Source: Octopus vulgaris (taxonomy: Eukaryota). From it: a stretch of 64,000 bases of DNA. Below are positions 13,774 through 62,598 of this stretch, piece after piece (the first letter of the stretch is position 1; each line of letters starts with the position of its first letter). The notes beneath the pieces were generated by a model that saw nothing but the letters and a program-made list of their open reading frames with translations, was not told the DNA's origin and searched no databases. The stretch is taken from the NCBI GenBank assembly GCA_951406725.2, contig OX597829.1:13268001-13332000 (forward strand). Reading direction: 5' to 3'. A program made the position numbers and the translations under genes.

Positions 13774-14329
13774 AAATGCCCTGATGCAGTACCTGGCAGT
13801 GGCTCTCGTGGCTTCTGATCTTAACTGATTGGAAGTGTTATCATGTACATTGTTTTGTCTTGGTATAAAAGATGAGCTACAGCAAATATTCTGCTCAATA
13901 CCACAGATTTGCTTGCCAGTTGTTTGTCCTTAACCAGTTGAACATGTCCCTTAGTGGCTGACGATATGTACATCTCTGATCACGAGCAGAAGTAGTGGGG
14001 GAGCATCATAGTCATGTGTTGAGAGGGATTCTTTGGGGCTTGAATAATTCACCTCTGGAAACATGGGTGGTTCTTTCAACATCCTTAAACAACCCTTATT
14101 CAGGGACCTTTTGAGTGGGATGGGCTACTCAACCTGAAGAAAATTCTAACTGGGCCCCACCTGCAAGGTCATGTGCCGTTTATCTTGATATGAGATCACC
14201 ATGTCGCGCACATATGGTTGTGATGCATGTGCCTGGTGTACCCTTATCAGACGGGTAGTCATGATGGGTAAATTGGGCTTCGTATATTTTGCCCCAGTGT
14301 CACTTTGATGGCATGCACTGCTCTCTCAC
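13774..14329 (+). mobile_element. ~555-bp non-coding (AAT)n-embedded SINE-like element, copy 1
   Basis: Near-identical to five other copies; starts AAATGCCCTGATGCAGTACC, ends CTCTCTCAC(TC)+(AAT)n. Confidence 0.85.
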
Positions 14330-14431
14330 AATAATAATAATAATAATAATAATAATAATAATAATAATAATAATAATAATAATAATAATAATAATAATAA
14401 TAATAATATTAATAATAATAATAATAATAAT

Positions 14432-14989
14432 AAATGCCCGGATGCAGTACCAGGCAGTGGCTCTCATGGCTTCTGATCTTAACTGATTGGAAGTGTTATC
14501 ATGTACATTGTTTTGTCTTGGTACAAAAGATGGGCTACAGCAAATATTCTGCTCAATACCACAGATTTGCTTGTCAGTTGTTTGACCTTAACCAGGTGAG
14601 CATGTCCCTTAGTGGCTGACGATATGTGCATCTCTGATCACGAGCAGAAGTAGTGGGGGAGCATCATAGCCATGTGTTGAGAAGGATTCTTTGGGGTTTG
14701 AATAATTCACCTCTGGAAACATGGGTGTTTCGTTCAACGTCCTTAAACAACCCTTATTCAGGGACCTTTTGAGCGGAATGGGTTACTCGATCTGAAGAAA
14801 ATTCTAACTGGGCTCCACCTGCAAGGTCATGTGCTGTTTATCTTGATATGAGATCACCATGTCGCGCACATATGGTTGTGATGCATGTGCCTGGTGTACC
14901 CTTATCAGACGGGTAGTCATGATGGGTATACTGGGCTTCGTATATTTTACCCCAGTGTCACTTTGATGGCATGCTCTGCTCGCTCACTC
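14432..14989 (+). mobile_element. ~555-bp (AAT)n-embedded element, copy 2
   Basis: Same termini and body as copy 1, separated from it by an (AAT)n tract. Confidence 0.85.
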
Positions 14990-15142
14990 AATAATAATAA
15001 TAATAATAATAATAATAATAATAATAATAATAATAATAATAATAATAATAATAATAATAATAATAATAGTAATAATAATAATAATAATAATAATAATAAT
15101 AATAATAATAATAATAATAATAATAATAATAATAATATTAAT

Positions 15143-57878: not shown

Positions 57879-60800
57879 GGAACACCGGGGGACGTTTAAG
57901 ATGTAAGAACGATAAAACAGAGCTCCGAAATATATCCACAAACATCGAAAACAAGGACATCGTATGAAGCCAAAGATTTACTAACAAAGGATTGGACTGT
58001 ATCCGAGTAAGTAATACTAATTGAAATTTATTACTATTTTCGAAACGAAATGATGTATTTTGACTCGATATCATCTCCACCTCTAACACAACACATGTAA
58101 ACATGCGTGATACATTACGATCCATCAACACCAGATCATCCCCGACACCAAACACCATGTACAAAGGAACTACGGAGAAATTAAATGCCACCGATATTAT
58201 TCAACACAAGAATAACAATCGAGCGGTACGTACTTTAAACTTACAACACAAAATGTACGAAAAACTACACGTGCAAAACAATGTGACAACAGAAATGAAC
58301 GGACCGGTACCCTACGAAAATGACGACCGTCAAAATAATGGGCCGGACGTTGTACCTCATGTCCCGCAAATAAAAGCCAAAAGACATAAATGGACACGTG
58401 AGGAATACATTTCTATCTTACACGCATATTTAACAGCAGTGCTCTACCCAAAAAATGAAAATACAACAACACATACATATAAAATATGGAAGGAAAATAA
58501 CATAGACTTGGATACAGCAATGAACCCTAATAAACTAGCTAACGTACGAAGATAAATTCTCAACGCAAAAAAAATATCAGAAATAGAAATAGAACATCTA
58601 AAAGAAAAAATACACCAGGAAAATGTAGATAGAAGCCACACAACAATGCCCAATATTATAAACACTGAAACAGTAAAGCACGAAGACAAACGTAACATTC
58701 CCAACAAACACGATGTAAACAACGAATGGGAGCCTAATGATTATGATAATATGAAAAGTAAAATAATCAAAGAACTGAAAACCACAGAGCTCAAAATGGA
58801 TCACCGACCATACCTCCCAAGAATCAAAATAGACGAAACAACAACACCAATTATAAACAGCATAAACCTAGCCATCACGGAACTAATAGCCTCTGAAACA
58901 AAAAGCGATATCACTGAGCTAAATGACTTAGTATACGCAGCAGCCACTGCAGCCACAAAAGAAGCTGGATACTCACTCAAACCCATCCAAACTGGAGTAC
59001 CACCACCCAAACAAACCCTGTGGATAAATAACATCCAAAACAAGATACAAAAATGAGAAAAGATCTGTCGATTCTTAATGAAATCAGCAGACAATCAACG
59101 CTAATGAGCAACAAAAAGAAAACAAAAATAATCCGCAAATATACCATCACAGAAAAAGATTTACCAGAGATAAAAGAAAAGCTGAAGCACAAAGGATCCG
59201 CCGGTATGAGAAACGCCAGCGCTTCTTTGAACAAAACAAAAATTCTACCAAGAACTTGGCAAAAATAAAATAGAAATCACTGCAGCACCAACGGCAGAAG
59301 AAGTGGAAGAATTCTGGAGAGAAATATGGTCGGCGAACGAACAGCCAAAAAAAAAAGGAGTATTAAAACAACAAACTCAACATCTGAACAACTTTGGACC
59401 CCCATAACAGCTGAAGAGGTCACCCAGACACTGCAAAGACTAAGCAACTGGAAGGCACCTGGGCATGACAAGATCCCCAACTTCTGGTTGAAATATCTAA
59501 CAGTAATGCACAAAAATCTGGCTGAAAATTTTAACAGCATACTAGCAGAGCCAGAGACAAAGCCTGAATGGCCCACGAAGGGGAAAACCATCTTAATTCC
59601 CAAATCAAATGAGACAGCAAAACCAGAAAACTACAGACCAATAACCTGTCTCCCTACTATGTTCAAGGCATTTACTGCAGTAATATCACAAAGATTAAAC
59701 AAGCACCTGGACGAAAACAACCAGTTTCCAGAAGAGCAGAAAGGATGCCGCAAAGACTCATATGGCTGTAAAGATCAACTAATGATTAATAAAGCCATAA
59801 CTGAAGACAGCCACAGAAAGAAGAAAGGTCTCGGTATAGCCTGGATCGACTACAAAAAGGTGTTTGATAGCATCCCCCACACATGGATCCTCGAAACACT
59901 AGCCATTAACAAAGTAGCACCAACAATCATAAAATTCATAGAGCACTCTATGTATAAATGGCAAACAGTGCTACAGCTCCAAACAAAAAAGGGACTCATG
60001 AAAACCAAAGCCATCCCCATTAGAAGAGGAATATTCCAGGGAGACACGCTTTCTCCACTCATTTTCTGCTTGGCATTGTCACCTCTATCTGATATGCTAA
60101 ATAGAACAGGATGCGGGTATAAATGTTACGGCAAAAAGATCAGCCACCTTTTATATATGGATGACCTAAAACTATACGCTGCAAATGACAAACAGCTGGA
60201 AACACTATTAAAGACAGTTCATGGATTTACCAAAGAAATAGATATTAAATTTAGATTAGAAAAATGCGCCAAAGTAACCATGAAAAGAGGAAAACTAGTT
60301 AAGAGTAGCAACATCACACTAGATAAAACCAATGAAATAAAAGAATTAGACCAAAGCCAAACTTACAAATACTTAGGAATCCATGAACTAGATGAGACAC
60401 AACACACACAAATGAAAGAGAAAATAAAAAAAGAATATTATAGACGAGTTAGATCAATACTAAAAACAGAGCTCAATGCTAAAAACAAGATAATAGGTAT
60501 TAATACTTTAGCTGTCCCAGTTATAAGTTACAGCTACAATATCCTTAACTGGACACTAAATGAACTGACCAAAATAGATAGGAAAACAAAAAAAATAATG
60601 ACAGGATCTAGGATGCATCACCCAAAATCTGACATAGAAAGCCTATATATACAACGTATAGAAGGTGGTAGAGGCCTTATACAACTGGAAACTACTATAA
60701 AATAACCACCATAGGACTGCAAAAATATCTACTTCAGAAGGAAGGAAAACTGATACAAATAGCGGCAAAACACGAGCAAAACAAAAAACTGTTCTCAGTA

Positions 60801-61797
60801 TTTAAGGAAGCTGACAAATACAAACAAGAAATCATACCACCTAATAAACACAAAGAAGAAGAAGAAGATGAAGAAACAACAAAAGCTATAAAACAAATGA
60901 AATCCAAACTAAAAATAGAACAGCAACGAACCATGATAAAACGGTGGCAAGAAAAGCCCCTTCATGGTAAATACTGGACTAAACTAAACGCAAAAAAATA
61001 GACAAAGAAAAATTCCAGCAATGGTTGAGAAGCTCAGGACTCAAAGCAGAAACAGAGGGATTTTTAATTGCAGCACAAGACCAAATCCTCCCCACCAGAA
61101 ATTACCAAAAACATGTAATGAAAAGAAATATAAGTAACTGCAGAATATGTGGAGATGGACAAGAAACAATAACTCATATTATCTCTAGCTGCCCAGTCCT
61201 GGCTAAGAAGGAATATATTCACAGACATGACAGAGTTGGAACCTACATACATTGGAAGCTATGCCAACATTATGGAATGACAACAGAAAAAAGACGGTAT
61301 AGGCACACACCAAAAAAGGTCATAGAAAACGAGAAAGCAACTATACTCTGGGATATGCCGATACACACAGATAGAGAAATTAAGGCCAACAGACCAGATA
61401 TAGTTGTCAGAGATCATGAAGAAAAAAATGCTTTCTAATTGATGTATCAATACTGGAAGATGACAACGTGTCTCTAAAAGAAATGGAGAAACTTTCAAAA
61501 TACAAAGACCTGGAAATAGAAGTAACCAGAATGTGGAATCTAAAAACAGAAACAATTCCTATCATAGTAGGAGCATTAGGCATGATAAAACAAATATTCA
61601 GACAAATACATCACAAAAACACCAGGACTTACAAACACATATAACATACATAAAATTGCACTACTAGGCACTGCACACATCCTACGCAGAAAACTTTCCA
61701 TACAATAACCATCAGAGAATCACAACAAATCACAGCACATAGCCAAGGGACATAGAGCTGCACTCGGTAGTGAAGTGAAAGCACGCTATAAAAAGAA
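57879..61797 (+). mobile_element. Near full-length R4/Dong-like element (family B) in an (AAT)/(GAT)n array
   Basis: 5' UTR, disrupted single ORF and 3' UTR, followed by (AAT)n. Confidence 0.92.
58103..61708 (+). pseudogene. Family B polyprotein (Myb-like, RT, CCHC, RLE) with multiple frameshifts and stops
   Basis: KRHKWTREEY; WKAPGHDKIPNFWLK; NYRPITCL; RGIFQGDTLSP; LYMDDLKLY; CRIC..ETITHIISSC; RPDIVV; GTAHILR. Confidence 0.9.
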
Positions 61798-62050
61798 TAA
61801 TAATAATAATAATAATAATAATAATAATAATAATAATAATAATAATAATAATAATAATAATAATAATATTAATAAAAATAATAATAATTATAATTATAAT
61901 AATAATAATGATAATAATAATAATAATAATAATAATAATAATAATAATAATAATAATAATAATAATAATAATGATAATAATAATAATAATAATAATAATA
62001 ATAATAATAATAATAATAATAATAATAATAATAATAATAATAATAATAAT

Positions 62051-62598
62051 AAATGCCCTGATGCAGTACCAGGCAGTGGCTCTCATGGCTTCTGATCTTA
62101 ACTGATTGGAAGTACCTTGTTTTGTCTTGGTATAAAAGATGGGCTACAACAAATATTCTGCTCAATACCACAGATTTGCTTGTCAGTTGTTTGACCGTAA
62201 CCAGTTGAGCATGTCCCTTAGTGGCTGGCGATATGTGCATCTCTGATCACGAGCAGAAGTAGTGGGGGAGCATCATAGCCATGTGTTGAGAAGGATTCTT
62301 TGGGGTTTGAATAATTCACCTCTGGAAACATGGGTGTTTCGTTCAACATCCTTAAACAAGCCTTATTCAGGGACCTTTTGAGCGGGATGGGTTACTCGAT
62401 CTGAAGAAAATTCTAACTGGGCTCCACCTGCAAGGTCATGTGCTGTTTATCTTGATATGAGATCACCATGTCGCGCACATATGGTTGTGATGCATGTGCC
62501 TGGTGTACCCTTATCAGACGGGTAGTCATGATGGGTATACTGGGCTTCGTATATTTTACCCCAGTGTCACTTCGATGGCATGCTCTGCTCGCTCACTC
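62051..62598 (+). mobile_element. ~555-bp (AAT)n-embedded element, copy 6
   Basis: Shares diagnostic variants with copy 2 (GTTTCGTTC, TACTCGATCTG, CTGCTCGCTC). Confidence 0.85.

Follow-up and report, generated by a model that had tools for sequence, protein, structure and literature searches.

We describe a 556-base, non-coding repeat, present in six copies in a 64,000-nucleotide stretch of the Octopus vulgaris genome (contig OX597829.1, positions 13,268,001 to 13,332,000; hereafter the window, numbered from its first base), that is a real, abundant and recently active non-autonomous retroposon. The copies have a fixed 3' end and 5' truncations, lie in (AAT)n microsatellite arrays that flank them on both sides, keep one strand relative to these arrays, are dispersed over the genome and are mosaics, with a middle segment that is shared with a miniature inverted-repeat transposable element (MITE). 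Our preferred explanation, to which we give a probability of about 0.7, is that the element is driven by the proteins of long interspersed nuclear elements (LINEs) of the R4/Dong clade, with a hairpin near its 3' end serving as the signal.

The copies in the window

A BLAST search of the window with the reference copy (copy 2) returned exactly six matches, all on the forward strand and 91-96% identical to copy 2 (the next-best match has an E value of 0.36), at the places listed in an earlier note on this DNA. Copy 2 (14434..14989; its 5' end possibly reaches 1-3 bases further into the AAT junction) is full length, as are copy 1 (13776..14329, immediately 3' of the short AAT tail of a Dong-type LINE of family F1), copy 4 (55589..56146) and copy 6 (62053..62598). 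Copy 5 (56227..56715) is the 5'-truncated copy with an intact 3' end that the note had recognised; it starts near nt 68 and lacks the first ~67 nt of the element. The length of ~555 bp given before holds for the full-length copies only, as copy 3 (15145..15592) is more diverged and, at 453 nt, lacks the 3' ~100 nt, including the hairpin, where a (TA)n run and another short interspersed nuclear element (SINE) start. The latter belongs to a second abundant SINE family, linked to (TA)n runs (15593-16350, 18300-20260, 27770-28300 and 46400-47630), one copy of which breaks into copy 3.

An (AAT)n run directly precedes each of the six copies, and, of the two subfamilies that had been noted, diagnostic columns place copies 2 and 6 in one and copies 1, 4 and 5 in the other. 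Coding capacity is negligible: the longest open reading frame (ORF) that starts with ATG has 61 codons and is found in copy 2 only, and in most copies the third codon is a stop. The absence of primary similarity to the LINE ORFs was confirmed, with no tblastx match between the element and four LINE copies. The statement that the copies share the orientation of the neighbouring LINEs is right for the adjacent Dong-type coding pieces, which are on the same strand; the window also has Dong-type pieces on the minus strand (2513-4249 and 41426-41966), and no element lies beside these.

Ends, target site and strand

An AAT-type array was found behind and before all of the 30 best-match copies, in four of them preceding the copy after short extra pieces. 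A larger set of 132 BLAST matches was obtained from the fetched loci (numbered with the prefix L below) after removal of eight duplicates and 30 loci of the MITE; it comprises 73 full-length copies, 37 that are 5'-truncated and have the 3' end, 10 with only the 5' end and 12 with neither end, many of the loci having been picked with full-length queries. The array follows 108 of the 110 copies with an intact 3' end, 73 of these 110 start at the same 5' base, and ATT repeats follow the element in none of the 132. As an unbiased sample we took eighty 10-kb stretches at round coordinates, picked irrespective of matches (800,000 bases). Here, 25 matches were found, of which 19 have the 3' end (17 with the array), 7 being full length with the same start base and 12 truncated, and one has only the 5' end.

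Of the 37 truncated copies, 23 follow the array directly (most of the listed exceptions are cases of diverged ends or of insertions that came later), so that the upstream array is part of the target and not of the element. As a control, the 16 heads of tRNA-headed SINEs in the unbiased sample were inspected, and upstream AAT was found for none, upstream ATT for two and no array for 14. The idea that these SINEs might serve as a control targeted to the opposite strand was dropped, as 14 of the 16 heads lack an upstream array and the SINEs are simply untargeted. The flanks of the element are AAT arrays on the strand used by Dong elements, not random sequence in either orientation. Target-primed reverse transcription (TPRT) leaves such an end pattern in non-LTR elements, and by analogy with these the ends of the element would represent TPRT at (AAT)n.

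Abundance, age and dispersal

The last 25 nt of the element have 13,193 exact matches in the genome (the reversed control has none), of which 11,620 (88%) continue with AATAA. In the unbiased sample 17 copies of at least 200 nt, in 14 stretches, occupy 8,877 of the 800,000 bases (1.1%), giving a genome copy number of about 60,000 (Poisson range 35,000-95,000, a range that clustering widens). When the genome was searched for close relatives, the best 40 of 2,130 first-look candidates were 99-100% identical and were distributed over 19 contigs; the 28 youngest copies, chosen as best matches, are 99.5% identical to each other, with 10 of 378 pairs being identical. Old copies are found with identities down to about 80%, and the element is also abundant in sequence runs of four other organisms, with partly different variants. 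Only 4 of 1653 pairs of loci (58 loci) share both flanks, and three of these four involve three copies that lie in an AAT run within another repeat. The element has landed repeatedly in a tRNA-headed repeat that contains an (AAT)n run (L015, L117 and L119, around 1400-2200), and one array (L070:4180-5245) holds five element pieces, three of which consist of the last 48 nt only.

Candidate helper LINEs

The neighbouring LINEs encode a reverse transcriptase (RT) and a C-terminal CCHC and PD-(D/E)xK-like region. Judged by this architecture, by the target and by the octopus annotations (PMC13282606), they would belong to the R4/Dong clade. Ten Dong-type families (F1 to F10) could be told apart by their 3' untranslated regions (UTRs), all of which are short, and nine of the ten end in AAT on the sense strand; F10 was seen once with an array, of ACT type. 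Dong elements are reported to target TAA repeats (PMC3812793). Four families are represented on the forward strand of the window close to the element: F1 (9178..13755, with a broken ORF that covers the RT, a CCHC knuckle and a PD-(D/E)xK-like end), F6 (55217..55485, a 3' fragment upstream of copy 4), F2 (56742..57205, 5'-truncated, sharing an AAT cluster with copies 4 and 5) and F4 (57880..61787).

F4 is young elsewhere in the genome and is a candidate present-day helper. We found 1,536 candidates for its 5' end, and 11 of the 12 fetched copies measure 3.9-4.0 kb, with a median identity of 98.4%. Its longest open frame (813 aa) has matches in the PDB to R2 proteins only, over residues 33-794 (RT and endonuclease; best E value 2e-37), and a search of the ESM Atlas returned unnamed RT clusters only. 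The family that drives the element at present is likely F2, F3 or F4. F7 was considered for this role and rejected, since an identity of only 88.5% among its copies marks it as old. Fifteen upstream stretches fetched for the 5' ends of F2, F3 and F7 yielded mostly truncated copies. The octopus annotation lists 51 Dong families; for recently active insertions it gives 5 families of Dong-R4 type and 893 SINE families that are unclassified, and the element is not named in its accessible text (PMC13282606).

A hairpin of Dong 3' UTRs and its counterpart in the element

We found a common hairpin in the 3' UTRs of the Dong-type LINEs that consists of an outer stem, a 3-nt bulge ending in A, an inner stem of 6 bp starting with G, and a loop of 5-6 nt. 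It is present in ten families and in most cases precedes the AAT array by 43-60 nt (L002, L029, L036, L093, L118, L128 and L184), and in the window it is located at 1880-1920, 13683-13723 (F1), 55409-55449 and 57132-57172. Eight 3' UTRs of six families share one structure, with 87.5% of the cells paired compared with 67.4% in shuffles (none of 500 as good), and 7 of the 11 pairs change on both sides, a covariation result that is favoured by the anchoring of the alignment rows with our own descriptor. No description of this covarying hairpin was found in the literature searched.

The hairpin that had been pointed out in copy 2 of the element (14889..14936, forward strand) is present as written, and we predict it to be the recognition signal. 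It has the outer stem, the 3-nt bulge, the 6-bp inner stem and the 5-nt loop of the Dong motif, with the proviso that the inner stem needs one bulged A, as it does in F7. Its folding energy is -28.3 kcal/mol (z -4.3; equalled by 1 of 200 shuffles), for a segment chosen after the hairpin had been seen, and the whole element likewise has a better fold than its shuffles (z -3.7; equalled by 0 of 100). A profile trained on nine Dong families, in which the bulge was allowed only after the element had been seen, gives the element hairpin 12.9 bits, within the range of the held-out Dong families (9.3-33.4 bits); no shuffle reached this score, either among 400 made from the last 130 nt or among 100 made from the whole element. 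A scan of 1.59 million positions with this profile yielded 47 sites of at least 12.8 bits, read as about 24 Dong tails, 6 element copies and about 17-20 background sites, and recovered F10, which was absent from the training set. An Infernal model of the Dong hairpin scored the held-out families F8 and F10 at 9.5 and 7.7 bits, respectively, and missed F7. Both models, built from Dong sequences alone, rank the hairpin above all other sites of the element, with the expected strand and a position close to the 3' end. The similarity is genuine, if modest, and does not tell mimicry from descent.

Junction signatures and fusions

Head-to-tail repeats of the first 15-30 nt of the element were found at 3 of 27 5' junctions, another, full copy is preceded by a 30-nt internal fragment, and an older copy (L058) also has a 5' head-to-tail repeat. 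As the repeats restart at, or at most 3 nt from, nt 1, the RNA of the element likely has a defined 5' end. In F4, head-to-tail repeats of its own first bases were seen in 21 of 29 loci, a number inflated by a query that carried a few bases of such a repeat. At the 5' junction of the young F4 loci (L205-L234), the first 15-25 nt are frequently repeated in tandem as several units, and variable additions of purines occur.

We also found four loci in which the 5' part of the element is joined directly to the 3' part of a Dong-type LINE (F2, F4, F7 and F7), with a microhomology of 0-3 nt, and a fifth fusion in which the end of an F5 ORF is joined to the last 88 nt of the element. All five are single-copy and together involve four Dong families; no AAT lies between the partners in any of them, the microhomology is about 0-4 nt, and all direct fusions with an identified LINE partner involve Dong families. 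The RT of R2 jumps between templates in vivo (PMC3414825). The locus L262 was considered as a LINE family with an element tail and rejected, being single copy. A genome-wide search for the end of a Dong ORF followed by the inner hairpin of the element found this pattern in one place only, and none of 39 other matches spans the junction; the search had no positive control and is insensitive to old or low-copy families.

These junctions and fusions would fit trans-mobilisation by Dong proteins. In the mechanism we propose, a Dong RT-endonuclease would cut the (AAT)n array, recognise the element RNA through its 3' hairpin as it would the motif in its own 3' UTR, and reverse-transcribe this RNA in trans from its 3' end at the cut, the RNA having a defined 5' end near nt 1.

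A middle segment shared with a MITE

A further finding, absent from the earlier note, was that nt 103-272 of the element (14536..14705 in copy 2, forward strand, and likewise in the other five copies) also occur in the interior of a MITE of 489 bp. In the runs of all four other organisms loose ends were seen at 14539 and 14705, which led to 320 exact genome matches of the flanking motif, and all 30 fetched motif loci (L145-L174) turned out to be this MITE, which has ~96-nt inverted arms, is often flanked by TA, has a median divergence of 11% from its majority sequence, is present in at least 320 copies and is presumably of the Tc1/mariner type. The window copies match the majority sequence for 93-96% over the shared segment, which stops at the start of the right inverted arm and includes none of the inverted arms. 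The MITE looks older than the element and has both arms of an internal hairpin, one of which is kept in the element, and for these reasons capture of the MITE interior by the element is the more probable direction. The element itself was also considered as a MITE or other DNA transposon; this was rejected in view of its polar ends in arrays and of the MITE interior being all that is common.

Head, promoter and ribozyme

Scans for A and B boxes gave nothing convincing and no B box, in line with the earlier note. ARAGORN found no tRNA genes in the window, a weak test that was also silent on the tRNA-headed SINEs there, and Rfam gave no match at the gathering score in the window and, at E values up to 10, only two chance matches of copy 2 to bacterial small RNAs. 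Taken together, no head of the kinds used by RNA polymerase III (tRNA, 5S or 7SL; Rfam, E values up to 10) was detected, although a very decayed one is still possible. A 5S-derived head, suspected by eye, was rejected, as the genome's own 5S sequence matched no better than shuffles (52-141 of 500). A cluster of 5S rRNA genes, in both orientations, is located on contig C4 near 35.2-35.3 Mb (L111-L114).

Descriptors for hammerhead and hepatitis delta virus (HDV)-like ribozymes found nothing convincing in the element. For the HDV-like type, run without a positive control, the strict descriptor had no match and a relaxed one a single implausible match at nt ~42, and none was found in the 5' ends of F1, F4 and the LINE in L243. 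The promoter is likely internal and of neither the tRNA nor the 5S type. No RNA run was listed among those carrying the element; this has no weight for or against its expression, and contigs reveal neither transcript starts nor strand. For the production of the RNA an internal promoter or an atypical ribozyme is possible, the latter because the Dong element of Bombyx has an active HDV-like ribozyme at its 5' end (PMC3774820).

Weighing the explanations

The earlier note described the element as a non-autonomous, (AAT)n-targeted partner of Dong-type LINEs, and this proposal is well supported by our data, with none of the three refuting conditions named there borne out (flanks and strand, a LINE 3' UTR, duplication). 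That a Dong protein drives it, by whatever mode of recognition, is highly probable; that recognition proceeds through the 3' hairpin is only slightly favoured. Several observations weigh against our preferred explanation. The Infernal score of the hairpin is low (9.4 bits; E value 0.039 in the element and 4.5 in the window) and is obtained in another register, with the inner stem left unaligned. The first base of the inner stem is G in all nine training families and T in the element, the distance from loop to array is 74 nt versus mostly 43-50 nt in F1-F4 and F9, and the element ends in bases rich in pyrimidines rather than in A. No covariation was seen within the element copies (the RNAalifold covariation term is +0.83), and a variant that breaks an outer pair makes up 27-34% of the depth in two related organisms. 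The tail of the element lacks primary similarity to the tails of the ten Dong families (for the best of them, 60 of 1000 shuffles did as well), an intact ORF is missing from all 12 F4 copies, and 5' duplications are much rarer in the element than in F4, for which the query was biased towards them. The fusions are supporting and not decisive, since a deletion between neighbouring insertions in one array could give the same picture.

Dong proteins might also move the element by relaxed recognition, as an abundant RNA that ends in AAU repeats and anneals at the cut, the hairpin being incidental. The weak Infernal match with its different spacing and stem base, the lack of covariation and the three hairpin-less 48-nt copies in L070 (which may be late truncations or local duplications) would agree with this. 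Nevertheless, we consider it improbable, as the hairpin comes out on top in two models built from Dong sequences only and frequent stem variants in this genome preserve pairing (G-U to A-U in 6 of 25; G-C to G-U or A-U in 10 of 25). Deletions that remove the hairpin are rare as well (single contigs only, with a depth of 45-186 versus millions), a point tempered by deletions elsewhere in the element being equally rare. Compatible with mobilisation by Dong is an origin of the tail in a Dong 3' UTR, from a family that is extinct or was not sampled, as in ordinary SINE/LINE pairs, and this has nearly an even chance. Many pairs of Dong families lack primary similarity to each other, so that inheritance cannot be distinguished from mimicry; the letters of bulge and loop in F6, F7 and F10 are similar to those of the element, F7 has the bulged A, and only ten families were sampled here against the 51 listed (PMC13282606). 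The single occurrence of the combined ORF-end and inner-hairpin pattern argues against descent, as does the lack of any non-element sequence among the loose ends of the 3' half (the 6 with the best support out of 469), both tests being insensitive to old or low-copy families. Structural mimicry as put forward in the earlier note is supported in part only and is not established: the hairpin exceeds shuffles in the profile but lacks significance in Infernal, base and spacing differ, and convergence and descent are about equally credible as origins of the hairpin.

Copying by another RT, of a LINE with an apurinic-type endonuclease (APE) or of Penelope, which would add or anneal an AAT tail, is still less probable. 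The partner is not pinned by sequence, and another, tRNA-headed repeat also contains AAT runs, but arrays flank both sides of the element, truncated copies included, none of the 16 control SINE heads has AAT upstream, and the identified LINE fusion partners are all Dong, with the reservation that the catalogue of tails does not cover all other LINE classes. Least credible, and very much so, is that the element is a long LINE 3' UTR or owes its spread to duplication, tandem or segmental, or to DNA transposition. Copies do cluster in tandem, often after a LINE tail, and the middle is related to a MITE; against this stand the common 5' base of most copies with an intact 3' end and of a good part of those in the unbiased sample, the finding of a LINE-to-tail fusion only once and as a single copy, the few locus pairs with two shared flanks, explained by shared host repeats, and the absence of the MITE arms. 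Returning to mobilisation by Dong proteins with the hairpin as signal, its most far-reaching form, in which a mosaic RNA with a captured MITE interior and without LINE ancestry or a polymerase III head convergently evolved a hairpin that is read by several divergent Dong proteins and became a promiscuous microsatellite parasite with a copy number rivalling that of its helpers, is doubtful.

Other features of the window

The window also contains a piece of an L1/Tx1-like LINE (5400-7030, read by eye), the tail of which is on the ATT strand of the adjoining array, opposite to the orientation of Dong. This array (7081-9177, ~700 units of ATA) and a second microsatellite (32977-35451, ~620 units of ATAC) are very long. 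A pair of perfect inverted repeats of 118 bp is present at 21605-21722 and 22050-22167.

Comparison with known systems

In the literature searched, including the accessible parts of PMC8967140 and bioRxiv 10.1101/596502, we found neither this element nor any other non-autonomous partner of Dong described, the scope ending short of Dfam, Repbase, the Zenodo library of PMC13282606 and subscription journals. The sources of ORF-less bipartite elements listed in the accessible text of PMC5786205 are RTE, Ingi, Vingi and R2 only, and not R4/Dong. Very probably, automated repeat libraries of octopus include the family without a name or under a wrong class.

The few non-autonomous partners known for elements with a restriction-like endonuclease (RLE) are the R2 SIDEs and the EhSINEs, as far as the accessible sources go. 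An abundant, recent element that is unrelated in sequence to the helpers tested is naturally suited to test whether RLE proteins recognise an RNA by shape rather than by sequence, and the covarying hairpin that ten families have in common is a concrete candidate for the 3' recognition signal of the R4 clade. RLE proteins may be able to place foreign cargo of several hundred bases in a microsatellite target, which bears on tools for RNA-templated insertion, and the family, at ~1% of the genome, is tied to AAT microsatellites. If convergent mimicry were true, it would represent the birth of a SINE by structural mimicry of an RLE 3' signal, without a polymerase III head.

EhLINE1 of Entamoeba histolytica is an RLE element of the R4 clade. 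Its partner EhSINE1 is, like the element, a non-coding, non-autonomous retroposon of 500-600 bp without a clear small-RNA head and with a body that lacks similarity to its LINE; unlike the element, it has ~70 bp of 3' sequence in common with that LINE and is not targeted to a microsatellite (PMC2996970). The octopus element has no detectable LINE sequence, is found in (AAT)n only and has the middle segment shared with the MITE. The R2 SIDEs of Drosophila are non-autonomous and site-specific, depend on an RLE-type protein that recognises the 3' RNA, and show template jumps, traits that would apply to the element as well; they are rare products of internal deletion that retain the 5' ribozyme and the 3' end of R2 (PMC3414825), whereas the element has ~60,000 copies, no ribozyme that we could find and no match to the Dong 5' and 3' ends tested. 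Neither F1 and F4 at full length nor the long LINE copies of L238 and L243 showed similarity to the element, a comparison limited by the 5' ends of most other families not having been recovered. With the Dong elements of Bombyx, Anopheles and Biomphalaria, with which the LINEs of the window agree, the element shares the TAA/AAT target, the strand logic and the 5' truncation; Dong encodes its own RT-RLE protein (PMC3812793, PMC3774820) and the element encodes nothing. Finally, the composite, modular build and the dependence on a LINE are shared with classical SINEs that have LINE-derived tails and with bipartite LINEs (PMC5786205, PMC3747384), and it is by its lack of a tRNA, 5S or 7SL head and of a B box that the element differs from the classical SINEs.

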